33,076 nt of DNA from contig CAYIWE010000002.1 in NCBI GenBank assembly GCA_964367025.1, positions 1-33,076 of the forward strand, given 5' to 3'. The notes beneath the pieces are model-generated. The model searched no databases. It worked only from the letters and a program-made list of their open reading frames with translations, and had not been told where the DNA came from. This DNA is from Candidatus Woesearchaeota archaeon. GTDB lineage: Archaea > Nanobdellota > Nanobdellia > SCGC-AAA011-G17 > ARS1178. This document shows, piece after piece, positions 2,864 through 32,870 of this stretch (position 1 is its first letter; every line of letters begins with the position of its first letter). The position numbers and the translations under genes were made by a program.

Positions 2864-2898
2864 TCTTTTTAGAAGGTTTTGTATTCTTATATAATTTT

Positions 2899-4447: not shown

Positions 4448-4717
4448 ATGGAAAATATCGCAATAACAAGAGTTAGTTCTAAGGGACAAATTGTAATTCC
4501 TCAAGAGATGAGAGGTGACCTTAAAGAAGGTGATGAGTTAGTTATTTTGAAAAATGAAGATCAAATAATTTTAAAAAAAGTTGATAAATTTAGCAAAAGT
4601 CTTGAAGAAGATTTAAAGTTTGCAAAGAAAACAGAGGAAGCGTGGAAGAGGTATGAAAAAGGCGAATTTAAGGAAATAGATTTTGATGATTTTATTAAAG
4701 AAATGAAAAAGTGGTAA
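4448..4717 (+). CDS. AbrB/SpoVT-family antitoxin
   Basis: 89 aa. The N-terminal ITRVSSKGQIVIPQEMRGDLKEGDELVI matches the swapped-hairpin AbrB/MazE/SpoVT DNA-binding motif. A GGAG Shine-Dalgarno sequence sits upstream, and the gene overlaps the downstream toxin gene. Confidence 0.75.
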   Translation: MENIAITRVSSKGQIVIPQEMRGDLKEGDELVILKNEDQIILKKVDKFSKSLEEDLKFAKKTEEAWKRYEKGEFKEIDFDDFIKEMKKW

Positions 4718-4959
4718 TCATTTGTTATGATGAACATTTTCAAAAGACATTTTCAAAAATTAAAGATAATAATTTAAAAGAAAAAATAATAAAACAAATT
4801 CAAAAATTAAAGGAAAATCCTGAGATTGGAAAGCCAATGAGATATAGTAGAAAAGGTACAAGGGAACTTTATGTATCGCCGTTTAGACTTTCATATGCTT
4901 ATATAAAAAATGAAGACAAAATTGTTCTTTTGGATTTGTATCACAAGGATGAACAATAA
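4711..4959 (+). CDS. RelE/ParE-superfamily toxin (mRNA interferase)
   Basis: 82 aa. A GTG start overlaps the antitoxin stop by 7 nt. The layout FQKTFSKIKDN...IIKQIQKLKENPEIGKPMRYSRKGTRELYVSPFRLSYAYIKNEDKIVLLDLYHKDE matches RelE/YoeB-like toxins. Confidence 0.75.
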   Translation: MVIICYDEHFQKTFSKIKDNNLKEKIIKQIQKLKENPEIGKPMRYSRKGTRELYVSPFRLSYAYIKNEDKIVLLDLYHKDEQ

Positions 4960-5028
4960 TTAATTTTTGGAGGAAGATTTAAATATAAGTTGTTACTATT
5001 TAATGAGTAATATTTTGGAGGTAAGAAA

Positions 5029-5472
5029 ATGAAAGGAGATTTTTATGAAGACAAAATAAAACAAGGAGTATTGGAAGAATTGGATGCAAAATATAAACAA
5101 AAGATTGATGGGTTGTACGAAGTAATTAAGGATTTGAAATCAAAATATATACCTGGTGCTTTGATAGTTACTGGGTTAGTGGCTTCTTTAGTTGGTGGTA
5201 GTGTAGGTTATGTTTTACATAATAGATTAAACAAAGAAATAAGAGATTTGGATACAAAAGTTAGTTTAGTCTATCTTCAATCTACTATGCCAGATAACCC
5301 AATTTTACCTGATGATATGACTAAAAGTATGACCAGTGATAGCTCAATCGTACCAAATTCCGATAAGAGTGTAAGTGATGAAGTTATGGATTTTAATGGA
5401 AAGATGCTTATTCAACCAGTATCTGTTCCAGGAAGCAGTAAACAACTTGAATCGTCTTTTGAAGGGTATTGA
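5029..5472 (+). CDS. Hypothetical single-pass membrane protein, paralog A
   Basis: 147 aa with a GGAGG Shine-Dalgarno sequence, an N-terminal coiled segment and one TM helix (GALIVTGLVASLVGGSVGYVL). The C-terminal PDNPILPDD...NGKMLIQPVSVPGSSKQLESSFEGY is shared with the next gene. Confidence 0.6.
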   Translation: MKGDFYEDKIKQGVLEELDAKYKQKIDGLYEVIKDLKSKYIPGALIVTGLVASLVGGSVGYVLHNRLNKEIRDLDTKVSLVYLQSTMPDNPILPDDMTKSMTSDSSIVPNSDKSVSDEVMDFNGKMLIQPVSVPGSSKQLESSFEGY

Positions 5473-5528
5473 AAAAATTACTAAATATTAAGTAAGTATG
5501 CTGTAAATGATATATTTGGAGGTTTAAA

Positions 5529-6020
5529 ATGGAAGGAAGTTTTTATAGACAAGTAGAAGATGAGGTTATGAGAAAAGTAGATGAAAGGTTAAGTGATGAA
5601 GCTGATAGATTTAATAAAACAATCAGCAATTTAAGAACAAGAACCCTTGGTTATGTAATAACTGCAGGTTTAGTTGCTTCTTTGATTGGTATTGGTAGTG
5701 GGATACTTAACCATAGAAAAATCTCAGAATTAGAAGGAAAAATTGATGAAAATAAATATACCACAAATAATGAGATGTTAGATTCAGTAACTATCAAAGA
5801 GATTGATGGTAAAACTTATCCAGGGATAGGATTATTACCAGATAACCCAATTTTACCTAATGATATAACTGAAAGTACGACTAGTGATAATTCAATTTCA
5901 AGTCCGAGTAAGGGTTTGAATAATGAGGTTATGGAAGATTCTAATGGAAAGATGCTTATTCAACCAATACCCGTTCCTGGAAGTACGAAACAATTAGAAT
6001 CGTCTCTAGAAGAGTATTGA
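5529..6020 (+). CDS. Hypothetical single-pass membrane protein, paralog B
   Basis: 163 aa with the same architecture as 5029-5472: TM helix YVITAGLVASLIGIGSGIL and C-terminal PDNPILPND...NGKMLIQPIPVPGSTKQLESSLEEY. Confidence 0.6.
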   Translation: MEGSFYRQVEDEVMRKVDERLSDEADRFNKTISNLRTRTLGYVITAGLVASLIGIGSGILNHRKISELEGKIDENKYTTNNEMLDSVTIKEIDGKTYPGIGLLPDNPILPNDITESTTSDNSISSPSKGLNNEVMEDSNGKMLIQPIPVPGSTKQLESSLEEY

Positions 6021-17785: not shown

Positions 17786-19639
17786 ATGTTAAAAAGAGGT
17801 CAGATAACGTTTTTTATAGTTCTTGGAATTGTAATTTTGGTTGTCATTGCTTTTTTATTTTTTATTAAGGGTCTCTATAAAATTCCTGAAAGAGAAAAAG
17901 TTATTCTTGCTCCAACTCAAAAGGATCCTGTTGAAAAGTATATGGAAAGTTGTATTATTAAAACAGCTAATGAAGCATTGGATAGAATTTATTTATATGG
18001 CGGGTATATTGATCAAACTCATTATATAAAGGATTATAACAAAATACCTTTATTTACCTACAGTTCTGAAGATATTATGTATAATATTCAACCACATCTA
18101 AAGGAAATAAATTATAGAATTGGTGAGTATGTAAAAAACAACCTACTTAATTGTGTTGATTTTACTGATTTTAGAAATCAGGGGTATAATATTCAAGATG
18201 GAAGTTCTGTAGATAAAGTAGTATTGGATATACAGGATAATAAAATTATTTTTAATGTTGATTATGCAATTGGTGTAGAAAGAGGCGGTGTAAAAAAAAC
18301 TTATGACAATTTTAAAACTTTTATTCCAAGTAAACTTGGGAAAGTTTTTGGTTTTATGACCGATATTGTCAATGAAGAGTGTATGGGTTATGAGAGTGGC
18401 TTATTGAATAATTTGGAGGATAGAGCCATTTATGAAGAAATTAAAATTTATAAATCTCCTATTAATGTTGGTTCTGGAATAAATAAGTATGAACTAAATT
18501 CTAAAAGCGACGGTAGGAGTTTTCATTTTGCTTGTCAAAAGGCCAGTTTAATAAGCGGATCTTTTGTTGAAAATCCGAGTATGACCGAAATTAGGGATTC
18601 TTCAACCATCAATCTTGAAAGTGGAATTTACGAAGTAGAAATTGTTAGTATGACTGAAAGTTCTGTCGAATTAGATTTTAAAAAAGGAAATTATGTTATT
18701 AAAAGCGTGTTTTTAAGTACTAATGGGAAGAATAACTGGCCATCTATCACTAAATTGGATTTAGATGATGATAAACGCAAGGATTTACAAATAGATTTGA
18801 GTTATGCTGATGGAAAGAATGTTAAATTGGTTTTTTATAAAGTTGTAGCAATACCACCTATAGCTGTTGTAAAAGTAAGCCCATCTATGATGAATAAAAA
18901 CGAATTAGAAGATTTAGTTTTTGATGCTTCTGGTTCATACGGTGTTAGTGCTGATATTAATTCTTATGAATGGGTTGTTGATTACTATAGGATGGATACC
19001 AACCAGATTAGTACTCGAAGACCAATTTCTTTCTCCAGTGGAAGCCCGAAGATTTTGGCAAAGAGCAATCCTAGTTCTGGTGATTTTGGATTAAGCGTTT
19101 CTAGTTTATTTAACAATGGGGGAACTTATGTTGCAAGATTAAAAGTTGTTGATGCTAATGGAATGGAAAATACCGCCATCAGTAATCCGTTTACTATATT
19201 TAATTGTAATTTAGTTGGTGAAGTAAAAATTATCAGCCCCATTGATGGAAGAAGTTATGAAACTTTACCAGAGTTGGTATGGCAGTATGAAGAAAATGGT
19301 CGAATGATTGGCGGAGTTAAGTATAGGGTTGAATTTAAATTACCTGGTGAAAGCAATTATAGGGATTATTTTGGAGAAATTTATAACAACAAATTGGATT
19401 TAAATGGAGTTGATAATTATATTGCTAATCTTAACAGTAAAGACCAGAACTTGATTGGTTTAACTGGTTATTATGATTCAAGTGCTCTTACTGCAAATGT
19501 TAATACTTTGAAGGACAGATGGGTTGGTTTTAGTGATGGAACTGAGATTTGGTGGAGGGTTGGAGCAAAATCATTTTGCAGTAATGAGGATGAGATTGTA
19601 TGGAGTGACGAAAAATATTTTAAGAAGAAGAATAGTTAA
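17786..19639 (+). CDS. Large class III signal peptide (type IV pilin-like) protein with a PKD-like domain
   Basis: 617 aa. The N-terminus MLKRGQITFFIVLGIVILVVIAFLFF fits the archaeal prepilin pattern (K/R-G then Q followed by a hydrophobic helix). The internal segment PIAVVKVSP...LVFDASGSYG...YEWVVDY...GTYVARLKVVDANGMENT looks like a PKD/Ig-like domain. Confidence 0.55.
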   Translation: MLKRGQITFFIVLGIVILVVIAFLFFIKGLYKIPEREKVILAPTQKDPVEKYMESCIIKTANEALDRIYLYGGYIDQTHYIKDYNKIPLFTYSSEDIMYNIQPHLKEINYRIGEYVKNNLLNCVDFTDFRNQGYNIQDGSSVDKVVLDIQDNKIIFNVDYAIGVERGGVKKTYDNFKTFIPSKLGKVFGFMTDIVNEECMGYESGLLNNLEDRAIYEEIKIYKSPINVGSGINKYELNSKSDGRSFHFACQKASLISGSFVENPSMTEIRDSSTINLESGIYEVEIVSMTESSVELDFKKGNYVIKSVFLSTNGKNNWPSITKLDLDDDKRKDLQIDLSYADGKNVKLVFYKVVAIPPIAVVKVSPSMMNKNELEDLVFDASGSYGVSADINSYEWVVDYYRMDTNQISTRRPISFSSGSPKILAKSNPSSGDFGLSVSSLFNNGGTYVARLKVVDANGMENTAISNPFTIFNCNLVGEVKIISPIDGRSYETLPELVWQYEENGRMIGGVKYRVEFKLPGESNYRDYFGEIYNNKLDLNGVDNYIANLNSKDQNLIGLTGYYDSSALTANVNTLKDRWVGFSDGTEIWWRVGAKSFCSNEDEIVWSDEKYFKKKNS

Positions 19640-19647
19640 TATATAAA

Positions 19648-21900
19648 ATGAAAAAAATTACAATTTTATTTGCTTTTTTACTCTTTTTATTAGTTTTGAA
19701 TGTTCAGGTTAATGCGGTTGGTTGTTGTGTTCAGAAAACTAACAGTGATGGAACAATGATGTATTGTAAATCTGATGATCAGAGTAGTTGTAATGGTGTA
19801 TATGATAATGGTCGTTGTGAGAATCGTGCAGAGTGTAATATTGGTTGTTGTTTTGTTCCTGAAGAAAAAAAATTTCGTTCTGGTATATCTCAAATAGAGT
19901 GTGTTGATTATTTAGAAGGGATATTTGATGGTAGTAATGCTGATTGTAGCCTTACTGAAGGTTACCAACTAGGGTGTTGCAATATTGGTGATGTTAGTTG
20001 TAATGTTGTTCAAAAAAAAGAGTGTGATCTTTTGGCCAGTGAGTATGGAATAGAGGATTATAATTTTGATTCTAGTTTGACAGATCCAGTTAGTTGTATA
20101 AACGCTTGTTATGGTGGAGAGACGGGCTGTTGTTATATTCCTGATGGATGTAAAAATGGAATTACACAAGGTGAGTGTTTTGAGAGTGGTGGAGAGTTTA
20201 TGGCCGGTCAATTATGTACAAACGATATATGTGATTGTGATGCTGGCACTAAGAATATATGTTATAATGATGATGTTGTTTTAGCAGATAATTGTGGAGT
20301 ACCCAAAACAGATAGTTCTGGAAATGTTATTTTAGCAGATAATGGAAATTGTGGAGGAACAACTACTTGTGGATGTAATGAGTATGATGACTGGGGATTA
20401 TGTGAACAGGACAAATTAACTTGTATACCTAGTTCTTGTAGTGTTGATGTTGTCTTTTCTGATTTTGGTTCAGTTGAAGAAACCAACAAGGTAATGAAGA
20501 ATGGTGAAACTTGGTGTGATTATATGATGGATATAAGTATAGAGCCCAATTTTAAAGATACTAGCGGGATGGTTATGGCAAATATTAATTTTATACAATC
20601 AAGGAATAATAAAGCCTATGAAAATTTATTGAATAATGTAAATAATTTAATTAAAGAAAAAGAACTTAGTGATGGTGTTAGCGAAACTGTTCAAAATATT
20701 GTAAGTGGCAATGAACAAGGGCCTGTTGCTTCGTGGATTGATGTTTTTTCGGGTAGATTAAGTAGTGATTATGGTATAAAACCTGCTTTTGATTATGGAA
20801 GAAATCACGCTGTTATGACTTGTGAGAATGGACAAATTAAAGTAAAACAACAGTGCGATGTTAACAGAAAAGAAATTTGTAATATTAAGGATAATGAAGC
20901 AAGATGTTTAACAAATTCTTATTTGAATTGTTATGATGCTACTAGTGAAGAAGTGTGTAGTGCTATGGATGATTGTGAGTGGATTGATAAATGGATTTTA
21001 AATAGTGATTATAATCCTTTACAGAATATTGAGGGTTATAGGGAAAATACCCAACAGATGGAAGAGTCCAGAACTCAACTTTCTTTAAATGAAAAGGTTT
21101 GTGTTCCTAAATATCAACCCGGAGTAGCAAATGGTGAAAAGAATTTATGTGAGATTTGCGGACAGGGTTCTACAAATGATTTGTTAAATCCTTTAATGGT
21201 TGATAGAGCGAGTAATTTAGGTGAAAATTTTAGAGTTAGTACTATTTCAACTGGTGTTTGTGGAAATAATGAATGTAGACATTTAGGTGATTGTCAATAT
21301 GAATTGGGCTGGAACAAAGATCAACAAAGATATCAGGGAATTTGTAAACCCTTTGAACCAAAAGAAAATCGTGGAGATTGCAGATTATGTAATAATTTGA
21401 ATACACCTTGTACTGAGGATTTATGCAATAAATTAGGCAAAAATTGTCAATTTTTAAGTTATGAAGGGGAAGATTTAGCAGATGTTAATTATAAACCCGG
21501 TGTATGTATGGATATGGATGAAGAGGATAGTATTGCTTTAACTTTGAAGTTATGGGATTATCCTTTAGATGATTATACTTTTGATCAAATAGTTGAAGAA
21601 AATGAATTAAAGGGGTATACAGTAAGGGGCGCTGTTGATATTGATAAACTTGAAAAAGAGAACGATGAAATGAGATTGGGAGTTCTTTCAAATAGACAAG
21701 CTGGCTGTTTTTATTACAAGGATTTTGCAGATGAGAACCCATTTAATGATGATGAACTTGAAAACCATAGGATGATTTCTGACGATAAATTTAGACACTA
21801 TGTTACTATACCTTTGGGTGTAATCTTTGATATTTCAAGGAATGAACCCAATATAATCAATGTATATTGCCGTATTGAAGAATCAGTTATCAGTCCATGA
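19648..21900 (+). CDS. Secreted cysteine-rich protein with repeated GCC modules
   Basis: 750 aa with a Sec signal peptide (ILFAFLLFLLVLNVQVNA/VG). Four N-terminal modules each open with G-C-C (VGCCVQ, IGCCFV, LGCCNI, TGCCYI), and there are dozens of further cysteines throughout. Confidence 0.6.
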   Translation: MKKITILFAFLLFLLVLNVQVNAVGCCVQKTNSDGTMMYCKSDDQSSCNGVYDNGRCENRAECNIGCCFVPEEKKFRSGISQIECVDYLEGIFDGSNADCSLTEGYQLGCCNIGDVSCNVVQKKECDLLASEYGIEDYNFDSSLTDPVSCINACYGGETGCCYIPDGCKNGITQGECFESGGEFMAGQLCTNDICDCDAGTKNICYNDDVVLADNCGVPKTDSSGNVILADNGNCGGTTTCGCNEYDDWGLCEQDKLTCIPSSCSVDVVFSDFGSVEETNKVMKNGETWCDYMMDISIEPNFKDTSGMVMANINFIQSRNNKAYENLLNNVNNLIKEKELSDGVSETVQNIVSGNEQGPVASWIDVFSGRLSSDYGIKPAFDYGRNHAVMTCENGQIKVKQQCDVNRKEICNIKDNEARCLTNSYLNCYDATSEEVCSAMDDCEWIDKWILNSDYNPLQNIEGYRENTQQMEESRTQLSLNEKVCVPKYQPGVANGEKNLCEICGQGSTNDLLNPLMVDRASNLGENFRVSTISTGVCGNNECRHLGDCQYELGWNKDQQRYQGICKPFEPKENRGDCRLCNNLNTPCTEDLCNKLGKNCQFLSYEGEDLADVNYKPGVCMDMDEEDSIALTLKLWDYPLDDYTFDQIVEENELKGYTVRGAVDIDKLEKENDEMRLGVLSNRQAGCFYYKDFADENPFNDDELENHRMISDDKFRHYVTIPLGVIFDISRNEPNIINVYCRIEESVISP

Positions 21901-22916
21901 TACTATTTTTTTTACCTTTTATCATTTTGTTTGGTGTATTAAGTTCTTATAGTGATATTAAGTATGGTAAAATTTTTAACAAACATATTATTATATTTTT
22001 GTTAATTGGTTTTATTTTAAATTTGTTATTAGTATCTTTTTATTATTTTAAAAATACCCCGATAAATTATGCTTACTTAATTGAATTATTTGTTAGCTCT
22101 TGTTTATCTTTGGTTATAGGTGTTTTGTTGTGGTTAATTGGTTTTTGGACCCCGGGTGATGCTAAACTGTTTTTTACTTACTCTCTTTTAATACCATTAA
22201 GCGTTTACAATATAGGATATATATTTTATTTTCCACAATTTAGTTTACTTGTTAATACTTTTGTTCCATTGTTTATATTTATGTTTTTTAAACTAATATT
22301 TGGAAGTTCGAAAGATGATAAGTTTAAGGCATTGAAAAACCTATTTAATCTTAAAGAATTAGTTTTTCTGTTTATTGCACTTTTCTCTTTTTCTTGGATT
22401 ATTGCAATCTTCGAAAGAAATTTTCTATTTAATTTGTTCATTCTCTTTTTGATTATATTCCTCTTAAGGAAATATTTTAAAGTCTTTTTAATTATTGTTT
22501 CTTTTTTGTTTTTTGTATTACGACTAATCTTTGATAAAAGTATTTATAATCTTGGCTTTTTAGAGAATTTTTTAATTTTTTATTTAATTTTTGTTTTAAT
22601 TAAATTTATTCTTGATTTAAGTTTTGAGTTTTTTACTAAAGAAATTAGTGTGAATCAATTAAAACCAGGGATGTTTTTAGCTGAAAGAGTTTTCAAAGAA
22701 AAAGGCAAAATAAAAAAAGAAAGAAAATTCTTTTCTTTTTTTAATCTTGATAATTCTTTTTTAGATGATAAGTTGATAGATGAAATTAAAAGCAAAGATA
22801 TTAAGAAAATTAAAGTGTATGAAACTGTTCCCTTTGCTCCATTTATGTTTTTTGGTGTTATACTAACATTATTGGTTAAAGGAAATATATTTTATTTTTT
22901 AGATATCTTTATATAA
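21897..22916 (+). CDS. A24-family aspartic prepilin/preflagellin peptidase (PibD/FlaK/EppA-like)
   Basis: 339 aa, polytopic. The first catalytic Asp context is SSYSDIKYGKIFN and the second is the G-x-G-D-x-K-L-like motif TPGDAKLF. The C-terminal VPFAPFMFFGVIL matches the I-P-F-G-P-F-L ending of A24 peptidases. Its ATG overlaps the preceding stop (ATGA). Confidence 0.75.
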   Translation: MILFFLPFIILFGVLSSYSDIKYGKIFNKHIIIFLLIGFILNLLLVSFYYFKNTPINYAYLIELFVSSCLSLVIGVLLWLIGFWTPGDAKLFFTYSLLIPLSVYNIGYIFYFPQFSLLVNTFVPLFIFMFFKLIFGSSKDDKFKALKNLFNLKELVFLFIALFSFSWIIAIFERNFLFNLFILFLIIFLLRKYFKVFLIIVSFLFFVLRLIFDKSIYNLGFLENFLIFYLIFVLIKFILDLSFEFFTKEISVNQLKPGMFLAERVFKEKGKIKKERKFFSFFNLDNSFLDDKLIDEIKSKDIKKIKVYETVPFAPFMFFGVILTLLVKGNIFYFLDIFI

Positions 22917-22937
22917 CTCCAATCCTTTTTGTCGATA

Positions 22938-23327
22938 ATGGATTTTGTTAATGCAGTTAAAGTCGATGATGAAAAAAAGAGGGTTTTGGTTAAGGTCAAT
23001 CCAAAGATCTTTCATTTAGATGTAATTTATGCTGCTGCTTATGTTTTGATGGACAGGGCGTATGTTTTTATTGATGGTGATCCTGAAAATGAGATTTTTA
23101 TTGAATTAAAATCTAAGGTTGATGGGGATTTAGAAAAATTGGGCAATGATCTTCATGAAGAGTTGATTAATTATTCTGTTTATTATTCCCAATTAGAGAA
23201 AAATAAGGGTATTAAATTAGCTATTTTACAAAAAGCATTATTGAGTGATGATTTAGAATTAAAATCAGAGGAGGATCCCCTTGGGATAAAAAAGGTGATG
23301 AAAAATGATAAAGAAGATAAAGTTTAA
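22938..23327 (+). CDS. HxsD-like small protein (long form)
   Basis: About 129 aa from ATG 22938. The segment IFHLDVIYAAAYVLMDRAYVFIDGD and the later HEELINYSVYYSQLEKNKGIKLAILQKALL resemble my memory of the HxsD family signature (LLNDYxLRE-type motif). It sits directly upstream of the radical SAM genes. Confidence 0.45.
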   Translation: MDFVNAVKVDDEKKRVLVKVNPKIFHLDVIYAAAYVLMDRAYVFIDGDPENEIFIELKSKVDGDLEKLGNDLHEELINYSVYYSQLEKNKGIKLAILQKALLSDDLELKSEEDPLGIKKVMKNDKEDKV

Positions 23328-23520
23328 TTTGGATTTTTATAATTTAAATGCAATAAAAAAAGCTGCTGAAGATTTTAAAGATGTTACACAAATTGAAGTT
23401 AAAGATACTGGCGAAGTTATTTTTATGCCAAATAATGGTTTGAATTTAGAATGGCTGGAAAATGAGTTTAAAAATTATGTTTTGGCTCTTTTAAAGGATG
23501 AACTAAGTCTCGATGAATAA
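23305..23520 (+). CDS. HxsD-like small protein (short form)
   Basis: 71 aa. FYNLNAIKKAAEDFKDVTQIEV and NEFKNYVLALLKDE repeat the two motifs of the preceding protein. It overlaps the preceding gene by 23 nt and the next gene by 1 nt. Confidence 0.4.
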   Translation: MIKKIKFNLDFYNLNAIKKAAEDFKDVTQIEVKDTGEVIFMPNNGLNLEWLENEFKNYVLALLKDELSLDE

Positions 23521-24941
23521 TGGCTATATCTTATTTTGCTGAAGATTTTTTAGACAAGGAATTTATTATAAATAATTATAAAGTTAGAAAAATAAGAGAT
23601 AGTTTTTTAGTTGTTGTTGACCATGGTTCTTGGGTTTTGTTAAATGATGATGAGTATTCTCTTTTGAGATTGGGAAGAGTTAAAGAGAATCTTAGTTTAT
23701 TCAACTTATTAAAGGAAAAAGGCATAATTATTACAAAAGAGAATGTTAAAGATATAATAAAACAATATAAAGAAAGATATAGCTTCTTAAATAAAGGGAC
23801 TTCTTTGCATATTGTTGCTGTTACACAAAGATGCAATCAAAGATGTTTGTATTGTTATGCTGAAGCTGAGAACCTAGAAAATAAAAACCACGATATGGAT
23901 AGTGATACTGGCAAGGCAGTTGTTGATTTTGTTTTTCAAACACCTTCTAAAGATGTGGTCATAGAATTTCAGGGTGGAGAACCTTTGTTGAATTTTGAAA
24001 CTATCAAAGTGATAATTGAGTATGCCAAGGAATTAAATAAAAAATATAAAAAAAATTTATATTTTGATTTAGTTAGCACTTTGACTTTGATTGATAAGGA
24101 TATAGTCAATTACTTGAAAGAGAATAATGTTGGTATATGCACTTCATTGGATGGACCAAAAGAGGTTCATGATAAGAATAGGAGATATTTAGGAGGCAAT
24201 GGGACTTATGAGGATGTTATCAGGGGAATTGATTTAGTAAAAGAAAATTATGGAAAAATAAGTGCCTTAATGGTTACAACCAAATTTTCTTTTCCCTATT
24301 ATAAAGAAATTATTGATGAATACGTAAAACACGGATTTATGAAAGTAAGATTAAAAAGCATGAGTAACATAGGTTATGCACAGAAAGTTTGGAAAGAAAT
24401 TGGCTATACTGGCGATGAGTATTTAGATTTTTGGAAAAAGAGCATGGATTATATATTTAAGCTTAATAGAGAAGATAAATTTTTGATTGAAGATTTAAGT
24501 AATATAATTGTTAAAAAGTTTTTGAATAAAAAAGATGTTTTGTTTACTGACTTACAAAGTCCACCTTGTGGCGCTGCAATAAGTCAAATGGCTTATAATT
24601 ATTCGGGGGATATTTTTACTTGTGATGAGGGACGATTGTTTGAATTGTTTAAGTTAGGTAATGTCAAAAAAGATAAATTTAGGGATGTTATAAAAAATGA
24701 GCAAACATGCGGAATTATATCTAGTTCTATGACTGATGTTCAATTTTGCGATACGTGTGTTTTTAAACCGTATTGCGGTTTATGTCCGGTGTGTAATTAT
24801 GCTGAACATGGCAGTGTTATAACAAAAATACCCTTGAGTGAGAGGTGTAAAATATTGAAGGGTATGTTCAGTTATTTATTTGAGAAGATGGTTTATAGTG
24901 ATGATAAAGAAATATTGTTTAATTGGACTAAGTACCGATAA
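23520..24941 (+). CDS. Radical SAM/SPASM peptide maturase with an N-terminal RRE-like domain (HxsB-like)
   Basis: 473 aa. The CX3CX2C motif is CNQRCLYC at about residue 104, followed by the GGEPLL box. The SPASM-type cysteines are C-x12-G-x4-C (CGAAISQMAYNYSGDIFTC) and CDTCVFKPYCGLCPVC. The first ~90 aa (SWVLLNDDEYSLLRLG...LFNLLKEKGIIITKEN) look like a PqqD/winged-helix RiPP recognition element. Confidence 0.8.
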   Translation: MAISYFAEDFLDKEFIINNYKVRKIRDSFLVVVDHGSWVLLNDDEYSLLRLGRVKENLSLFNLLKEKGIIITKENVKDIIKQYKERYSFLNKGTSLHIVAVTQRCNQRCLYCYAEAENLENKNHDMDSDTGKAVVDFVFQTPSKDVVIEFQGGEPLLNFETIKVIIEYAKELNKKYKKNLYFDLVSTLTLIDKDIVNYLKENNVGICTSLDGPKEVHDKNRRYLGGNGTYEDVIRGIDLVKENYGKISALMVTTKFSFPYYKEIIDEYVKHGFMKVRLKSMSNIGYAQKVWKEIGYTGDEYLDFWKKSMDYIFKLNREDKFLIEDLSNIIVKKFLNKKDVLFTDLQSPPCGAAISQMAYNYSGDIFTCDEGRLFELFKLGNVKKDKFRDVIKNEQTCGIISSSMTDVQFCDTCVFKPYCGLCPVCNYAEHGSVITKIPLSERCKILKGMFSYLFEKMVYSDDKEILFNWTKYR

Positions 24942-24949
24942 TTATTTAA

Positions 24950-25276
24950 ATGAGTTTTTCTAAATTATTCCTTATGAATAAACAAGTAAAATTGCCTGAA
25001 GTTAAAAAGAAAATTAATTTATTTCTATTGAGTGAAGAAGGCAAGATTTCTAAGCAAGCTTTGCTAATGGGCGGTGCTATCTTGGGCAGTGCTGTTTTGT
25101 CTGGTATTTTAAGCAGCAAGGTTGTTAGTGCTTCTGAGGAAAGTGGTGTTGTTGTTCATAATAATGATCTTAAATTTGGTTATAATAAAGATTTAGGGAT
25201 GGTTGCTGCTAAACATATCCATAATGTATCCCATAGCCAGTGTTGTAGTTGTGGCATGGGTAAAGTTTGTATGTAA
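24950..25276 (+). CDS. Candidate ribosomal precursor peptide (His/Ser/Cys-rich C-terminus)
   Basis: 108 aa (100 aa if it starts at the internal MNKQ). It has a basic N-terminal region, a hydrophobic Gly/Ala/Ser-rich segment ALLMGGAILGSAVLSGILSSKVVSA, and the C-terminal core KHIHNVSHSQCCSCGMGKVCM. It lies between the two SPASM radical SAM genes with gaps of 8 and 6 nt. Confidence 0.55.
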   Translation: MSFSKLFLMNKQVKLPEVKKKINLFLLSEEGKISKQALLMGGAILGSAVLSGILSSKVVSASEESGVVVHNNDLKFGYNKDLGMVAAKHIHNVSHSQCCSCGMGKVCM

Positions 25277-25282
25277 TTTCTA

Positions 25283-26278
25283 ATGAAAGAGATACGAGAA
25301 GTAGTTTTATTTGTTACTGAAAATTGTAATTTGGATTGTGATTATTGTTATGTTAAAGATAAGAATGGAAAAAATTTGGATTTTGATACCGGTAAAAAAG
25401 CTATTGATCTATTAAAAAGTTCTAAAAGCGAAGAAAAATTATTGCATTTCTTTGGCGGAGAACCTTTATTGAATTTTGATGTTGTTAAGAAATTAGTTGA
25501 ATATGGTGATGGAGTTAAATTCCAGATTAGTACTAATGGAATTTTATTAAATAATGAAATCTTAGATTTTTGCAAAAAAAATAAAATAAGATTGGCAATT
25601 AGTTTGGATGGTGATGAGGCATCACATAATAAACATAGGGGCATGTTCAATAAAATAAAAAAATGGAATTATGATGATATCTTTTATAGGATGACGGTTT
25701 ATCCAGATTTAGCTGGTAAAATTTTTCAAAATACTAAGTTTTTATATGAAAATTATTCTAAAAAAATAGATGTTGTACCTGCGTATGGTGTTGTTTGGAC
25801 TAAAAAAGATTTGGAAATTTTTGATAGAGAGTACGGGAAAATCTTAGATTTTTATTATGAAAACCTTGGTGATATACACATTTTAAGTGTTGAGGAAGAG
25901 TTTATTAATTTTATAAACCCGTATCAGAAGTACTGCCCTTTTATCAAGAATATTGTTGTTTTGCCCAATGGCGATATTATTTTTTGTCCTTATATACTTG
26001 TTTTTGACAAAGAAAAAAGAGGGTTGTATGTAGTTGGAAATGTTTTTGATGGTTTTAAAGGAAAATGGAAATTTTGTAATTATGGGAGCATAGAATGTAA
26101 GAATTGTTTTCCTGAACCTTATTGCCATTTAACTTGTTTAACTTATGATTTTAAGGATAAGAAATATTACGATGCCAATCTAATCTGCAATAATAACATG
26201 TTAAAGGAGATAATTATAAAACATAGTTTTAGAATATATAAAAAAATAAAAGATACTGACATTATTAAAATTAGGTAG
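25283..26278 (+). CDS. Radical SAM/SPASM peptide maturase (HxsC-like)
   Basis: 331 aa. The motifs are CNLDCDYC at residues 15-22, FFGGEPLLNF, STNGILLN and SLDGDEASHNKHRG. It carries an exact SPASM signature: C-x11-G-x4-C (CPFIKNIVVLPNGDIIFC) and CX2CX5CX3C (CKNCFPEPYCHLTC). Confidence 0.8.
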   Translation: MKEIREVVLFVTENCNLDCDYCYVKDKNGKNLDFDTGKKAIDLLKSSKSEEKLLHFFGGEPLLNFDVVKKLVEYGDGVKFQISTNGILLNNEILDFCKKNKIRLAISLDGDEASHNKHRGMFNKIKKWNYDDIFYRMTVYPDLAGKIFQNTKFLYENYSKKIDVVPAYGVVWTKKDLEIFDREYGKILDFYYENLGDIHILSVEEEFINFINPYQKYCPFIKNIVVLPNGDIIFCPYILVFDKEKRGLYVVGNVFDGFKGKWKFCNYGSIECKNCFPEPYCHLTCLTYDFKDKKYYDANLICNNNMLKEIIIKHSFRIYKKIKDTDIIKIR

Positions 26279-26287
26279 GTGTTATTG

Positions 26288-27616
26288 ATGATAGATGTTT
26301 TATTGGTTTACCCGTGTGATTATAAACAATTAAGCGGAGAGAAATTAGATATTTATGATACAAGAGAATTAGGTTTATTGTATTTAGCTAGTGTTTTAGT
26401 TAATAACGGGTATAGTGTAGAATTATTACCCGCTGTTTATAATTTAAAAGAATTGGAAAGTAAAATAAAAAAAATTGTCAGTGAAAATAATTTGAAATTG
26501 GTTGCTACTACTGGTTTAACTCATGAGTATCCTGCTGCTCAATGGATTTTAAAAAAAGTTAAAGAAGTTGATAAAAATGTTAAAACGGTCATTGGCGGAC
26601 AACATGTTACATGGTTAGCCAAAGAAGTTTTAATTGAAAGTCCGTATATTGATATTGTTGCTAAAGGCGAAGGAGAGGTTGTTATCTTAGATTTACTTAA
26701 GAAAAATTTGAAAGATGTAAAAGGGATAGTTTATAGAGAAAATGGCGTTATTAAAGAGAATGATATCAATGAATTTTGCAAAGAGATAATTTTATTGAAT
26801 GAGGATGTTCTAAAAAATTACTTAAGAAAAATTACTGAGAAGTTTGATGGAATCAAGTTTAATTTGAGTTCTAGCAGGGGATGTCCTTATAATTGTTTGT
26901 ATTGTAGTGAAGTCAAGTTCTGGGGCAATTTTGTTAGAAACAAACCAGTTAAAGACACTATTAATGAATTGGATATTTTTTGCAATAGTAAAACCCGCAA
27001 TAAAATAATCTGTTTTTGGGATAGTACTTTTACTGTTGACCCCAAGTATACAAAAGAATTGTGTAGTGCTGTTAAAAAAAAGAACTACGATTTTGGTTTT
27101 TGGTGTTATACGCGTGTTGATACTTACAACAAAGATATAGCGGGTGTTTTGAGAAGTGCTGGTTTTAACAGTCTGGCTTTTGGAGTTGAACATTTTCATC
27201 CTGAAGTTTTGAAGACTATGGGGAAAAATATTAGTGAAGAACAGATTAAAAAAGCTTTGGAAAATGCAAAGGAATTGAATCAACTTACAAGGGTTTATTT
27301 TATTACTGGACATCCTGGAGATAATGTCGAAAGAACTTTGTATTCCTATCAAAGAGCCAAGAGATTTATTGATTTGGGGTTAATTGATATGGTACAACCT
27401 TTTATTTTTGTTCCGTATCCTGCTACTGATGTTTTTAAAAATCCTTTAAGATATAATGCTGAAATTTTAAGTTATAACTGGATAAAATATATGAGAGATA
27501 CATATCCTGTTATAGAGTACAAGGATTTTAGCGCGGATGAAATATATTATTTATTTATGTTATTCGAAAAACTAAAATTGAAAAATAAAGAGGAATTTTA
27601 CGGAGTTGATGCTTAA
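26288..27616 (+). CDS. Class B (cobalamin-binding domain) radical SAM enzyme
   Basis: About 442 aa from ATG 26288 (AGGTAGGTG Shine-Dalgarno; GTG 26279 is an alternative start). The N-terminal B12-binding-like domain has VLLVYP, GGQHVT and VAKGEGEVVILDLL. The radical SAM core carries SSSRGCPYNCLYCSE. Confidence 0.8.
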   Translation: MIDVLLVYPCDYKQLSGEKLDIYDTRELGLLYLASVLVNNGYSVELLPAVYNLKELESKIKKIVSENNLKLVATTGLTHEYPAAQWILKKVKEVDKNVKTVIGGQHVTWLAKEVLIESPYIDIVAKGEGEVVILDLLKKNLKDVKGIVYRENGVIKENDINEFCKEIILLNEDVLKNYLRKITEKFDGIKFNLSSSRGCPYNCLYCSEVKFWGNFVRNKPVKDTINELDIFCNSKTRNKIICFWDSTFTVDPKYTKELCSAVKKKNYDFGFWCYTRVDTYNKDIAGVLRSAGFNSLAFGVEHFHPEVLKTMGKNISEEQIKKALENAKELNQLTRVYFITGHPGDNVERTLYSYQRAKRFIDLGLIDMVQPFIFVPYPATDVFKNPLRYNAEILSYNWIKYMRDTYPVIEYKDFSADEIYYLFMLFEKLKLKNKEEFYGVDA

Positions 27617-28482
27617 TGGTTTTTATTAAGTTCCATAATGAGTGCAATAATAATTGTCTGAGTTGCAGAAGCAGGGAATGGAATAAAATTGAATTTAATG
27701 ATATTAAAAACGAAGTTATGGAAAAATTAAAACCGGGCGTTGTTTTTGAATTTGTTGGCGGAGAACCGTTTATTAAAGAAGATATCTTTGATTTATTGGG
27801 TATTATTAAGAATAATTTAAGCAGGTATAAGTTTTATAGTAATGGCAGGTTATTTTTTTATAAGGATTTTGTTGAGAAATACCATGATTATTTGAATTGT
27901 GTTGTAATTACTTTTTTTGGCGACACAAAAGAAAAACACGATAAATTTACTAGAGTGGACGGAAGTTTTGATCAAGCTTTTGAGGGTTTAAAAAATTTAA
28001 TTTATTTTGATGTTAAGGTTGTTTGTAACCTGTATAATTGTAGGGAAGAATTTGCTAAAAAATTAATTGATTTTGGGGTTAGTGAGATTTATATTACAGA
28101 GGATGGTGATGGGGAAGAATTTGTTTATAGTTGTTTTAGTGATAAAGTAAAACAAAGAAAATACGAATTTGATAGGATAGCGATACCCCTTGTGTCTATG
28201 AATCATACTGATTTTAACTTAGATTTGTTTGATTTGTTAGTTGGTGTTAAATTTTATTTGAATAAAGACGTTGTATTTTCTAAAAAAGAAGATAATTGTT
28301 ATTTGTATAAACTTAATAGTTTTACTTCTTGTGATTTAAATGAAGATGGGTTTGAATTAATCAAAAGCATAGATGGGAAAGATGTTGGGGTTATATTAAA
28401 AAAATATCCGGAAACAATCCATAATAAAATTTTATTATTTTTGCAGAATTTAATAGAAGATGGTTTTTTAGAGACAAGATAA
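27616..28482 (+). CDS. Radical SAM enzyme fused to a C-terminal PqqD-like (RRE) domain
   Basis: 288 aa. It has CNNNCLSC at residues 10-17 and FEFVGGEPFIKEDIFDLL, but no SPASM cysteine array. The last ~65 aa (YLYKLNSFTSCDLNEDGFELIKSIDGKDVGVILKKYPETIHNKILLFLQNLIEDGFLE) fit the PqqD-family pattern. Its ATG overlaps the preceding stop (TAATG). Confidence 0.7.
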   Translation: MVFIKFHNECNNNCLSCRSREWNKIEFNDIKNEVMEKLKPGVVFEFVGGEPFIKEDIFDLLGIIKNNLSRYKFYSNGRLFFYKDFVEKYHDYLNCVVITFFGDTKEKHDKFTRVDGSFDQAFEGLKNLIYFDVKVVCNLYNCREEFAKKLIDFGVSEIYITEDGDGEEFVYSCFSDKVKQRKYEFDRIAIPLVSMNHTDFNLDLFDLLVGVKFYLNKDVVFSKKEDNCYLYKLNSFTSCDLNEDGFELIKSIDGKDVGVILKKYPETIHNKILLFLQNLIEDGFLETR

Positions 28483-30951: not shown

Positions 30952-31959
30952 ATGTTTAAAAAAGGGGTTTCTGGTATGCCGTTTGTTTGGATATTTATAG
31001 GGATAGTTGGTGCTATGTTTTTGTTATTTTTCATTAAATTGGCTTTTGATTTAAGAAATACTTCTCAGGATTTAAATGATAAAATAATGGTTTTAAAAGT
31101 TAAAGATATATTGGTTGGGGCTAGCAGTAGTCCAGGTTATTTTACTAAATTAAGTTTACCTTTAGCAGATGGAAGAATTTTAAATTTTAGTGGTGATAAT
31201 TATTTACAGATTTATAAAGGAGATAAATTGTTGGGACGTGTTAATATGGAGAACAATATTATATTTTCTCCTATTATTGAAAATAATAATGTTTTGTTAT
31301 GGGTTGATAGATGGAATGTTCCTTTTTATGCATCTAATTTTGTTTTTTTGATTACAGAGGATAAAAAGTATAATTTAAGGAGTTCTACTATTACTGGTGA
31401 TTTGGGATTTAGAGAATTAGATGGATTTATAAAAAAATTAAAGGATAAAATACCCTTTGAAGAAAATGTAGAGGTTGGTGGCCGCACGTATACTCCGTTG
31501 AGGAGTGGCGGTGATGATAAAATAATCATGTTTAGAGCTTCTAGTGGTGATTTAAATTGTAGAGGGAGTTCTTCAAATTCTGATGTTGAAGTAATTTTTG
31601 AAAAAGAAACTATGGATTCTGATTATATTTATGGTTATGTTTGTTATTGGGACAAAGAGAGAGTCCCATTTATTGGCAAGCAGATGATATACGGGGCTAT
31701 TTTCACAGATGAGTATGCTACTTTTAAGACTTTAAGCGAATTATCCTTTGAAAGATTAAAAAATTTGGTTGATTTGTATATTGAAAGAACAGAAGATAAT
31801 GAGATTTTACAGAAAAGTTTTGAGGATTTGAAGAAGGCTTTAGATAAAGACTTTGAAGATTTAAGTGATAGTGATTTAAAGAAAATTTATGATGCTATTG
31901 AACAATTAAACCATATCCATTACTTATTTGTCAATGAGAGGGGAAGATATGTTTATTAA
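30952..31959 (+). CDS. Class III signal peptide (pilin-like) protein
   Basis: 335 aa. The N-terminus is MFKKGVSGMPFVWIFIGIVGAMFLLFF (basic residues, Gly, then a ~20-residue hydrophobic helix). Confidence 0.5.
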   Translation: MFKKGVSGMPFVWIFIGIVGAMFLLFFIKLAFDLRNTSQDLNDKIMVLKVKDILVGASSSPGYFTKLSLPLADGRILNFSGDNYLQIYKGDKLLGRVNMENNIIFSPIIENNNVLLWVDRWNVPFYASNFVFLITEDKKYNLRSSTITGDLGFRELDGFIKKLKDKIPFEENVEVGGRTYTPLRSGGDDKIIMFRASSGDLNCRGSSSNSDVEVIFEKETMDSDYIYGYVCYWDKERVPFIGKQMIYGAIFTDEYATFKTLSELSFERLKNLVDLYIERTEDNEILQKSFEDLKKALDKDFEDLSDSDLKKIYDAIEQLNHIHYLFVNERGRYVY

Positions 31960-32422
31960 AGGACAATTGAGGATAAGTGAATCTATGATTGTTCTATTTG
32001 TTGTTTTTATTTTATTTTTATTTGCTTTTGGTTTTTATATCAAGGAATTAAAAAGCGGAATAAGTGACAAATTAAACGAGGAGAGAGATTTTAGTAATTT
32101 ATTGTTAATTAATTCTTTGATGACCAGTCCAGAACTTGGTTGTAGTAAGGATACTGTTGTTGAAATTGGTTGTTTGGATATGAAAAAAATTGATGCTTTT
32201 ATTAAATTAAGTGATAAAGAATTTTATAAGGAAGTTTTTGGAGAGAGCGTTATAAGTGTTAGTGGAATTTATCCAGATAGTTTTTCTTATGATCGGGAAA
32301 TTTATGATAATGCAATGGATGATTATGATTTAAAAATTGTTAGAGAGATTCCTGTTTCTTTGTATAACCCGGATAATAATGGGTATTTTATTGGTTTGTT
32401 AAAGGTGGAAGTTTATGCGTAA
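31949..32422 (+). CDS. Class III signal peptide (pilin-like) protein
   Basis: I place the start at ATG 31949 (GAGAGGGGAAG Shine-Dalgarno), giving MFIKGQLRISESMIVLFVVFILFLFAF. That is a K-G-Q prepilin-type cleavage motif followed by a hydrophobic helix. It overlaps the upstream gene by 11 nt. Confidence 0.55.
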   Translation: MFIKGQLRISESMIVLFVVFILFLFAFGFYIKELKSGISDKLNEERDFSNLLLINSLMTSPELGCSKDTVVEIGCLDMKKIDAFIKLSDKEFYKEVFGESVISVSGIYPDSFSYDREIYDNAMDDYDLKIVREIPVSLYNPDNNGYFIGLLKVEVYA

Positions 32423-32870
32423 AGGACAAATTGAAACCATGGGTTTAGTTGTAATAGTTTTACTGTTTATTTTAGGTTTGACTTTTTATGTTGTTTTTGT
32501 TGTTATGGAGAAAAATTATGATAGGAGTAGCACTGATGTTTATCAGACAATGTTTGCCAGTAATTCTTTGAATAGTGTTTTAAATTATAAGATTAGACCA
32601 AGTTGCCAGGATAAGGATATTGGAGATTATTTAATCAGTTTAGGTATGGGTGTTAGTGCTTGCGGAAAAACTGAAGATGATATAAAGGATGAAATTGGTA
32701 ATGCAATGATCAAAATTTTAGAGGGAAGTTATTTTGAGGGTTATTATGTTGAGGGAATGAAGGGTAAAGATTTATTTTTTGAATTAAACCGAGGCAATTG
32801 CAAGGAAAATCTTGTTGGTATTTTTAGTCCTAAGTATGTTATTTCTACTGGTTATAGTGTTAGATTATAA
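32415..32870 (+). CDS. Class III signal peptide (pilin-like) protein
   Basis: 151 aa with the N-terminus MRKGQIETMGLVVIVLLFILGLTFYVVFVV and an AAGGTGGA Shine-Dalgarno sequence. It overlaps the upstream gene by 8 nt. Confidence 0.55.
   Translation: MRKGQIETMGLVVIVLLFILGLTFYVVFVVMEKNYDRSSTDVYQTMFASNSLNSVLNYKIRPSCQDKDIGDYLISLGMGVSACGKTEDDIKDEIGNAMIKILEGSYFEGYYVEGMKGKDLFFELNRGNCKENLVGIFSPKYVISTGYSVRL

Follow-up and report, generated by a model that had tools for sequence, protein, structure and literature searches.

A small archaeal peptide gene with a cysteine-rich tail probably encodes the HxsA-like substrate of an HXS-type maturation operon

The DNA analyzed here, referred to as the window, is a 33,076-nucleotide stretch of contig CAYIWE010000002.1 (assembly GCA_964367025.1) from a Candidatus Woesearchaeota archaeon. 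It contains a small open reading frame (ORF; positions 24950 to 25276, plus strand, 108 aa) that lies in an operon of eight genes with intergenic gaps of at most 12 nt. All eight genes are read from the plus strand, in the order A24-family peptidase paralog (21897 to 22916), HxsD-like small protein (132 aa; 22929 to 23327), HxsD-related small protein (71 aa; 23305 to 23520), the radical S-adenosylmethionine (SAM)/SPASM maturase HxsB (473 aa; 23520 to 24941), the peptide, a second radical SAM/SPASM enzyme that resembles PapB and CteB (331 aa; 25283 to 26278), a B12-binding radical SAM enzyme (445 aa; 26279 to 27616), and a small radical SAM enzyme (288 aa; 27616 to 28482). An earlier note on this DNA, made from the letters alone, had placed the ORF between two SPASM genes, and both neighbors are indeed radical SAM enzymes with complete SPASM cysteine motifs. 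The sequence of the ORF is identical to the one quoted in that note.

We found that the peptide gene is real, conserved, and under strong purifying selection. At least eight metagenome contigs from several samples carry orthologs of 94% and 88% identity, and codon comparison gave a ratio of nonsynonymous to synonymous change (pN/pS) of 0.06 against the ortholog at locus L008 and 0.14 against that at L088, from which the window gene differs by 28 synonymous and 12 conservative nonsynonymous codon changes. Alignment of homologs, the check that the earlier note had proposed, showed that the ORF and its cysteines are conserved in syntenic orthologs: all four Cys residues are kept, and S94T is the sole substitution within residues 94 to 108. 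One could instead suppose that the ORF is spurious, a frame that merely happens to be open in the AT-rich DNA separating two enzyme genes, and it is true that the peptide has no match in Pfam (E up to 10, with either start codon) or PADLOC and that no obvious Shine-Dalgarno sequence was seen for it. However, the conservation data already refute this explanation, as does the existence of homologs in 485 sequence clusters (described below) with an operon position that is always the same, and we consider its probability to be negligible.

The first ATG of the ORF is probably not the one used. In the 88% orthologs (L088 and L089), a 1-nt deletion puts the counterpart of this ATG out of frame, and their start codon is a GTG that falls opposite the window ATG at position 24974 (codon 9). 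Members of the wider family start 1 to 6 residues ahead of a conserved proline (Pro16). Because these two observations agree, the true gene most likely spans 24974 to 25276 and encodes a protein of 100 aa beginning MNKQVKLPEV; for convenience, we retain the numbering of the 108-residue ORF throughout. An AT-rich element, TAATTATTTAAATGAG (24941 to 24956), covers the stop codon of hxsB and is 100% conserved in four orthologous loci, even though the coding sequence near it varies among them. It might serve as an archaeal TATA box for a leaderless precursor transcript, lying ~26 nt ahead of the start at 24974, but because the genome has a GC content of 29%, this idea stays a speculation.

The earlier note had described a basic N terminus, a hydrophobic segment ending at VSA/SEE, and four Cys residues near the C terminus. 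All of these are present, but the part that follows the hydrophobic segment amounts to 47 residues rather than the ~55 that had been given. Residues 1 to 37 contain 8 Lys or Arg and 3 Asp or Glu residues, and the conserved cationic leader, MNKQVKLPEVKKKINLFLLSEEGKISKQ, occupies residues 9 to 36 (24974 to 25057). The hydrophobic segment, a putative export signal or membrane anchor, comprises residues 37 to 61 (25058 to 25132); its hydropathy maximum lies at residues 37 to 55 (Kyte-Doolittle score of 1.87 over 19 residues), and it ends in a signal-peptidase-like V59-S60-A61, followed by S62-E63-E64. The 47 residues after A61 end in HIHNVSHSQCCSCGMGKVCM and fall into two parts, a conserved His core (residues 62 to 97; 25133 to 25240) containing H70-x-N72 and H89-x-H91-x-x-S94-H95-S96, and a Cys-rich tail, CCSCGMGKVCM (residues 98 to 108; 25241 to 25273), with Cys at positions 98, 99, 101, and 107. 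There is no strict H-x-S triplet anywhere in the peptide.

A word-index search for homologs returned only four proteins, two of which have a Cys tail; the other two end HSHHGSHSSY and HTHHGSHSSHGSHGSHGSHSSSF and match the NCBIfam models HxsA3 and HxsA4 below cutoff. The family therefore came into view only through an exhaustive profile search of 1.84 billion representatives, which yielded 485 clusters at E<1e-3 and 137 at E<1e-10. Column frequencies over 219 distinct sequences revealed a leader motif consisting of P16, K19/K20, F25, E29, G31, I33, and K35, at frequencies of 0.86 to 0.99 (P16, 0.99; K20, 0.91; F25, 0.89; E29, 0.99; G31, 0.99; I33, 0.95; K35, 0.97). In the hydrophobic segment, the conserved columns are G42 (0.94) and A61 (0.75), and position 59 is Val or Ala in 65% of sequences; in the His core, they are H70 (0.90), N72 (0.77), H89 (1.00), H91 (0.72), S94 (0.64), and H95 (0.86). 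The window peptide carries the whole leader motif, the small residues at both 59 and 61, and every one of the near-invariant positions listed, including H70-x-N72, H89-x-H91, and S94-H95.

Structure prediction with AlphaFold2 from the family alignment gave a mean predicted local distance difference test score (pLDDT) of 71 for the peptide. The model has a leader helix at residues 16 to 26, a long hydrophobic helix at residues 35 to 55 (pLDDT of ~90), and a beta-hairpin with strands at residues 68 to 79 and 84 to 93 (pLDDT of 77 to 82), in which H70 and N72 lie on one strand and H89 and H91 on the other; the tail is disordered. The predicted helix, the hydropathy value, and the V-S-A end all support an N-terminal export signal, each of them as a heuristic. 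The earlier note had regarded a leader combined with an export signal as unusual for a peptide of this kind. This turned out not to be so: the layout is fixed across the family and is thus no oddity but the hallmark of at least 485 clusters, and Escherichia coli HxsA offers a precedent for it (PMC13128918).

The same note had remarked that the His/Ser cluster of the peptide echoes HxsA, and this echo proved to reflect true homology. Residues 15 to 65 match positions 2 to 49 of the HxsA3 model at E 7e-5 (22.5 bits, against a cutoff of 65), and more distant homologs of the peptide do have His-x-Ser repeats at their C termini. When 32 members of the family were sampled, all 32 matched the HxsA3 model, 15 matched HxsA4, and 7 matched classical HxsA. 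Judged by sequence, then, the peptide belongs to a large and mostly unannotated family related to NCBIfam HxsA3 (NF038309) and HxsA4 (NF038313).

Members of this family vary widely at their C termini. The last residue is Tyr or Trp in 55% of small members, and five members, the window peptide among them, end Cys-Met. In P0032, P0140, L072:503-802, P0015, and P0102, the His-x-Ser repeats are replaced by poly-Gly or by Thr-Gly or Ala-Thr repeats ending YY. Other members (L015:8004-8861, L081:8004-9311, and L029:348-1184; P0036, P0064, P0119, and P0120) have one or two Hint/intein-type domains after an HxsA-like leader, hydrophobic segment, and His core; the fused domain starts with Cys (CCFPAGT...VHN) straight after the His-rich region, and Pfam PT-HINT, Hint, and Intein_splicing matches reach 7.5e-21. 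These fusions suggest that the modified peptide may undergo self-cleavage or be transferred at its C terminus. Still others are giant proteins of ~520 aa (L062:7998-9572, L071:7998-9563, and L070:1248-2768) that combine this leader with over 40 His-x-Ser repeats in a row and a C-terminal domain (~300 aa) lacking a Pfam match; at these three loci, a SPASM enzyme that is not HxsC but resembles ACGX/SbtM separates hxsB from hxsA, and A24 is not among the adjacent genes.

The genes upstream of the peptide provide the second part of the homology evidence. The 473-aa protein matches the HxsB model TIGR03978 over its full length at 428 bits (cutoff of 370); it has an N-terminal extension of ~100 aa, a CX3CX2C motif at residue 105, and a complete SPASM set (C350-x12-G-x4-C368 and C410xxC413x5C419xxC422). 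The 71-aa protein exceeds the cutoff of HxsD_rel (NF038315; 49 bits, cutoff of 41), and the 132-aa protein falls short of that of HxsD (TIGR03976; 36.6 bits, E 4.4e-9, cutoff of 50), although its homolog at L001 is assigned to Pfam family PF27806 (HxsD) in the precomputed annotation. We did not find a canonical HxsC in the window or in the related loci examined. The second radical SAM enzyme of the group comprising L062, L083, and L087 was considered as a candidate HxsC and rejected as ACGX/SbtM-like. A PADLOC run on the window returned no Hxs models, only generic radical SAM cross-matches to pVip and PDC-M51A, which we did not take as evidence of defense.

To place the operon among related loci, we used a metagenome scan that started from a 16-sequence alignment and gave 80 loci, annotated by phmmer against the operon proteins of the window; a scan of genome contigs for HxsB gave only two loci. 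One locus, L008, is a full ortholog, with the identical eight genes in the identical order. When distinct loci with sufficiently long flanks were counted, HxsD preceded HxsB in 33 of 37, an HxsD-related gene was present in 29 of 37, and an A24-like gene preceded HxsD in 20 of 32. The HxsB homologs of L062 and L074 score 489 and 481 bits, respectively, both above the TIGR03978 cutoff. Thus, a module of A24 peptidase, HxsD, a second HxsD-type protein, HxsB, and HxsA, without HxsC, recurs in many archaeal loci and is previously undescribed. Two loci of a closely related strain, in which the peptide is 94% identical (L002:2896-3648 and L004:54-806), have only the C-terminal 250 aa of HxsB, without the radical SAM cluster motif, directly after genes for HIT, EF-1-beta, and ribosomal aS21; they are either truncated, decaying operons or chimeric assemblies.

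What sets the window peptide apart within its family is its tail. Two features had been passed over in the earlier note, the register of the tail cysteines and the A24 peptidase at the head of the operon. Family columns 98, 100, 101, 103, and 104 are predominantly H (0.74), S (0.69), H (0.71), S (0.65), and H (0.60), where the window peptide has C, S, C, M, and G, so that C98 and C101 sit at the places of H98 and H101, that is, in the register of the His-x-Ser repeats. The CCSCGMGKVCM tail is unchanged in the 94% and 88% orthologs. Among 203 small family members, 26 (~13%) have at least three Cys in the last 25 residues, 48 have at least two, and 138 have at least two H-x-S triplets.

The tail is directly followed by the second SPASM gene, with 6 nt between the peptide stop codon and this gene in the window; at L089 (564 to 625), a 63-nt insert in this position holds a palindrome-like stretch, GGGTAAAACCC. 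The 331-aa product has PapB as its best NCBIfam match (137.5 bits, cutoff of 340), with lower scores for CcpM (109, cutoff of 500) and the SCIFF maturase (96.6, cutoff of 425), and thus misses all three cutoffs; its best Protein Data Bank match is CteB (5WGG, E 5e-19). Its SPASM motifs are complete (C218-x12-G-x4-C235 and C272xxC275x5C281x3C285), and it is conserved in the orthologous loci L008, L003, L005, and L089. The CX3CX2C motif lies at residue 15, which leaves no room for an N-terminal recognition domain. The two domains resembling the RiPP (ribosomally synthesized and posttranslationally modified peptide) recognition element (RRE) that the earlier note had mentioned gained no support: the only such signal was a weak PqqD-like match (E 0.1) near the C terminus of the 288-aa enzyme (residues 241 to 285), and a PqqD/RRE search of the HxsB N terminus gave nothing meaningful.

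The last two genes are less easily assigned. The 445-aa enzyme has Pfam B12-binding (2.1e-14) and Radical_SAM (9.1e-21) domains but reaches no NCBIfam cutoff, its best match being BchE at 136 bits versus 481. The 288-aa enzyme matches HxsC (TIGR03977) at 59.4 bits versus a cutoff of 267.9 and over residues 8 to 135 only, a likeness limited to the radical SAM core, and scores 37.5 bits against HxsC4 (cutoff of 500). Both genes are conserved in L008.

Cys tails appear to go with a downstream PapB-like SPASM gene. In 28 loci, counted after removal of orthologs and with thresholds relaxed post hoc, such a gene followed 7 of 8 tails with at least two Cys versus 3 of 20 others (Fisher p 7e-4); a first pass had given 5 with and 4 without the SPASM gene versus 3 and 17. 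At one independent Cys-tail locus, L074 (tail HCSGCSCKW), the peptide gene is likewise followed immediately by a SPASM gene, and PapB is again the best family match of the product (168 bits). The sample is small, and we regard the association as suggestive. With PapB and CteB as the closest relatives of the adjacent enzyme, thioether bonds on the Cys tail are plausible.

These observations raise the possibility that the peptide is a stand-alone Cys-thioether RiPP, a bacteriocin similar to ranthipeptides or sactipeptides, in which the cross-linked tail alone is active, the likeness to HxsA is a leftover, and the hydrophobic segment is part of the leader. Four Cys within 11 residues beside a SPASM enzyme that best matches PapB and CteB, and the co-occurrence of Cys-rich tails with PapB-like enzymes, are what this explanation would predict. 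However, the leader, hydrophobic segment, and His core are the most conserved parts of the peptide and are under purifying selection, HxsB and the two HxsD genes are kept both in the operon and in its ortholog L008, and the 331-aa enzyme not only misses the PapB, SCIFF, and CcpM cutoffs but, without a recognition domain of its own, probably depends on the Hxs leader machinery. We therefore consider a stand-alone thioether RiPP to be distinctly improbable.

The exchange of His for Cys in exact repeat register (H98 and H101 to C98 and C101) is a swap typical of metal ligands and invites another explanation, namely, that the peptide is exported to bind metal, as a metallochaperone or a buffer resembling a metallophore, with the His core and the His/Cys tails as ligands and the radical SAM enzymes rigidifying or tuning the site. 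The conservation of H70, N72, H89, H91, and H95 on the two strands of the predicted hairpin and the dominance of His, Cys, and Gly in family tails are consistent with it. Yet the neighborhoods examined have no conserved gene for a metal transporter or a metalloenzyme, the tails of many family members consist instead of Thr/Gly/Ala repeats, Hint domains, or large domains of unrelated kinds, and the sole experimental precedent points to antiviral defense through DNA binding (PMC13128918). Given the swap of His for Cys, a metal-binding role is a reasonable rival, but we consider it unlikely.

The first gene of the operon, which encodes a paralog of the prepilin/preflagellin-type membrane peptidases (GxGD aspartyl proteases of family A24), bears on how the leader might be removed. 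On its own, the 339-aa protein gave weak Pfam matches (Peptidase_A24, 0.0032; Arc_PepC, 0.0015), but 11 of 13 syntenic homologs match both families (best E values of 7e-8 and 4.9e-10), and D20 and D88 are invariant among the A24-like homologs, in the motifs SY.D.K.GKI.N and W[ST][AG][GA]D[AG]KL. A profile of the A24-like alignment found no relevant match among Protein Data Bank sequences, so the assignment rests on the Pfam matches of the homologs and the Asp motifs. The locus L074 has two A24 paralogs, a 298-aa copy (2815-3711) beside small pilin-like genes and a 378-aa protein of the Hxs-linked type (4673-5809) before HxsD. The canonical-looking copy shares 15% identity with the Hxs-linked type, and hhalign relates them with 97.4% probability across both Asp motifs. 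At L028, L077, L079, and L080, the adjacency of A24 and Hxs genes persists beside housekeeping genes rather than pilins. Because of this pilin-free adjacency and the separate canonical-looking A24 of L074, the Hxs-linked A24 looks like a dedicated paralog, and it is a candidate for the leader peptidase of the system. Archaeal prepilin and preflagellin peptidases of the A24 family include FlaK, PibD, and EppA, and the A24-headed, HxsC-less module suggests that the leader may be removed in the manner of a pilin.

In the window itself, the dedication of A24 to the Hxs genes is less clear, as its gene comes directly after genes for pilin-like and secreted proteins. Class III pilin-like N termini (MLKRG|QITFF, MRKG|QIETM, and FIKG|QLRISES) were noted in the products of 17786-19639, 30952-31959, 31928-32422, and 32415-32870, and 19648-21900 encodes a 750-aa Cys-rich secreted protein whose stop codon overlaps the A24 start by 4 nt; L015 and L024 have a similar pair, a large pilin-like and a large secreted protein, beside the A24 gene. 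The G31|K-I-S-K sequence of the peptide is similar to junctions in these proteins (G|Q-I-T, G|Q-I-E, and G|Q-L-R-I-S). The near-invariant G31 and G42 lie before or within the hydrophobic helix, with Glu (G31) or a variable residue (G42) at position -2 and a long leader ahead of them. A Pfam search for class III signals detected none in the peptide or in the pilin-like proteins of the window, so the analogy holds at the level of motifs only.

If the analogy were complete, the product would be a membrane-anchored, pilin-like surface peptide: A24 would cut at G31 or G42 on the cytoplasmic side, the helix would be retained, and the His/Cys tail would be displayed or polymerized, with no release by signal peptidase. 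The dedicated A24 paralog with both catalytic Asp residues as the first gene of a conserved module, the near invariance of G31 and G42, the likeness of G31-K-I-S-K to the junctions of pilin-like proteins of the window, and the charged leader ahead of a hydrophobic helix all argue for this. The details around G31 fit less well, since positions -2 and -3 are Glu instead of Lys or Arg, position +1 is Lys, and the hydrophobic run begins 6 residues past G31. The peptide does not match the strict pattern that the FlaFind predictor uses for archaeal class III signal peptides, nor does it match any Pfam class III model. In addition, the conserved small residues at -3 and -1 (V/A at 59 and A at 61) favor cleavage by signal peptidase I, and 12 of 32 loci have no adjacent A24 gene. 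A peptide that stays anchored like a pilin is thus possible but doubtful.

Our preferred explanation, to which we assign a probability of about 70%, is that the ORF encodes the exported substrate or effector peptide, an analog of HxsA, of an archaeal HXS-type maturation operon. The HXS-type identity is supported by the HxsB and HxsD_rel scores, the sub-threshold HxsD score, and the HxsA3 alignment. The proposal that the ORF is a ribosomally made substrate for the neighboring radical SAM enzymes is also supported. The chemistry and function of the operon are, all of them, what we infer, and might run as follows. The cationic leader (LPxxKKK..FL..EEGKISK), presumed to be the recognition element for HxsB/HxsD-type partners, would dock in the cytoplasm on HxsB and/or the HxsD proteins. 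HxsB would then modify the His/Ser core, H89-I-H-N-V-S-H-S96, within residues 62 to 97, its presumed target by analogy, which would be the counterpart of the E. coli HxsA sequence SHRSS that gains 8 Da. The Cys tail is the presumed substrate of the three additional, lineage-specific radical SAM enzymes; as guesses, the PapB/CteB-like SPASM enzyme would install Cys thioether cross-links and the B12 enzyme would methylate. By the positive-inside rule, the hydrophobic helix would insert with its N terminus inside and its C terminus outside, and the leader would be cut off by the A24 peptidase of the operon (at G31 or G42), by signal peptidase (after V-S-A61), or by both, giving a modified peptide of ~47 to 77 residues that would end up at the cell surface or beyond it. 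By analogy with E. coli HXS, this product may act in envelope-level defense against viruses, which is the weakest step.

Several facts weigh against this explanation. No curated HxsA model is matched at its cutoff (HxsA3, 22.5 bits versus 65), and strict H-x-S triplets are missing from the peptide. Nor is there a canonical HxsC (the 288-aa enzyme scores 59 bits versus 268), the gene order is unlike D-B-C-A, and there is no peptidoglycan-binding domain. Because of these differences in HxsC, HxsA repeats, gene order, and peptidoglycan-binding domain, the transfer of function from E. coli to an archaeon, which has no periplasm, is loose. The metagenome loci were fetched with the EEGKISK motif, so that the conservation of EEGKISK in them is partly circular, though the 150 profile-derived representatives are free of that bias. 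The association between Cys tails and SPASM genes comes from 28 phylogenetically non-independent loci and post hoc thresholds. The A24 gene of the window adjoins the pilin-like genes (17786-19639) and overlaps 19648-21900 by 4 nt, and its product could serve the pilin-like proteins instead. Lastly, the sequences that follow G31 and G42 depart from the strict archaeal class III pattern, with no Pfam class III match.

A bolder version, which we offer as a tentative proposal, is that archaea, probably DPANN-type lineages with small genomes (DPANN being a superphylum whose members have small cells and are often symbionts), have their own widespread version of HXS with pilin-style export, in which a dedicated GxGD (A24) peptidase removes a conserved class-III-like leader after modification in the cytoplasm. 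The window would then encode a hybrid, an HxsB-modified His core joined to a Cys tail bearing thioethers and methyl groups made by three recruited enzymes, displayed at the surface as an antiviral or host-interaction peptide. If this were true, the pilin-style route would explain how Fe-S enzymes act before export, and A24 would be the missing "noncanonical" leader protease of HXS-type systems.

Outside the operon, the window (29% GC) also encodes aIF2-alpha, GINS51, and PAC2. Two overlapping small ORFs (4448-4717 and 4711-4959) look by eye like a toxin-antitoxin pair, an AbrB/SpoVT-like protein with the sequence ITRVSSKGQIVIPQEMR followed by a RelE/ParE-like protein of 82 aa. Rfam and tRNA scans of the window were empty.

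The locus and its family of ~500 clusters indicate that an HxsB/HxsD-based module is common in archaea. They also suggest that what stays invariant as the target is not the repeats but a short His core, which the AlphaFold2 model places on a hairpin, and that the "payload" at the C terminus can be swapped freely, with His-x-Ser repeats, Cys-rich tails, Gly/Thr repeats, and Hint domains as the versions seen. The Cys-tail variant can be seen as a natural experiment on joining Hxs and thioether chemistry, and the operon A24 is a concrete candidate for the leader-removal step. Being small (~100 aa, without a peptidoglycan-binding domain), the archaeal substrates may be better suited to reconstitution of the chemistry than E. 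coli HxsA, which forms inclusion bodies.

Among known systems, QhpC and QhpD provide a precedent for a small Cys-containing protein that is matured by a SPASM enzyme before export. QhpC is the gamma subunit of quinohemoprotein amine dehydrogenase, which is cross-linked in the cytoplasm by the SPASM enzyme QhpD, loses its leader, and is then exported. QhpD-type models are among the secondary matches of both SPASM enzymes of the window, below their cutoffs; however, the precursors share no sequence relationship, and the leader logic differs. Like the ranthipeptide and SCIFF RiPPs (PapB and CteB), the window has a Cys-rich C-terminal core beside a radical SAM/SPASM enzyme, but that enzyme is far under the PapB cutoff and lacks an N-terminal RRE, and the precursor differs by its export segment and its leader of the Hxs type. 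Ranthipeptide acceptor residues are usually Asp or Glu, neither of which occurs in the window tail, which holds Ser, Lys, Gly, Met, and Val. With archaeal class III signal peptides, the peptide shares an A24 enzyme with both Asp residues in the operon and a charged leader, near-invariant Gly, and hydrophobic helix in that order; it differs in that the leader is long (~22 to 33 residues) and highly conserved, with acidic residues before the Gly and an A-x-A-like site after the helix.

The closest comparison is with HXS (HxsA-HxsB-HxsC-HxsD), which was predicted by Haft and Basu in 2011 (as cited in PMC9062424 and PMC13128918) and is an anti-phage system in E. coli and Klebsiella (Li et al., Nat Commun 2026; PMC13128918). 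Its action, which blocks DNA entry, was shown only in 2026, and its chemistry, effector cutting, and export are unsolved. E. coli HxsA has a signal peptide, and its maturation by HxsB, HxsC, and HxsD before export has been shown experimentally; it acquires 8 Da at SHRSS and undergoes a noncanonical N-terminal cleavage (PMC13128918). The system is reported as 99.7% Pseudomonadota, with no mention of archaea (PMC13128918), and our literature search found neither archaeal Hxs modules nor a link to A24. As in HXS, HxsB of the window exceeds its curated cutoff and HxsD-type small proteins are present; the substrate combines an N-terminal export signal with a C-terminal region rich in His and Ser, radical SAM maturation must be complete in the cytoplasm ahead of export, and N-terminal processing would be more than simple removal of a signal peptide. 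Unlike in HXS, the host is an archaeon, HxsC is missing, there are two HxsD paralogs and a leading A24 peptidase, the order is A24-D-D'-B-A instead of D-B-C-A, and three further radical SAM enzymes are encoded; the substrate is only ~100 aa long, with a cationic leader before the hydrophobic segment, no peptidoglycan-binding domain, and a Cys tail.

The tests for membership of HXS thus split, HxsB and one HxsD-type model scoring above cutoff, HxsC and the HxsA repeat models (TIGR03979, NF038296, NF038309, and NF038313), among which HxsA3 gave the only hit and only over the N-terminal half, staying below cutoff, and the gene order and the peptidoglycan-binding domain having no counterpart, and for this reason we do not file the locus as a canonical HXS system but as an archaeal variant built on an HxsB/HxsD core. 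Within the NCBIfam families, the leader and hydrophobic segment of the peptide align to HxsA3 (NF038309) and HxsA4 (NF038313), whereas its C-terminal half fails to align to the repeat region of HxsA3 because CCSCGMGKVCM replaces the repeats. NCBIfam already holds HxsA3, HxsA4, HxsD_rel, and HxsC4, so that curators had seen parts of this diversity; what is new here is the Cys-for-His tail together with three recruited radical SAM enzymes, the HxsC-less, A24-headed architecture, and the size of the archaeal family.

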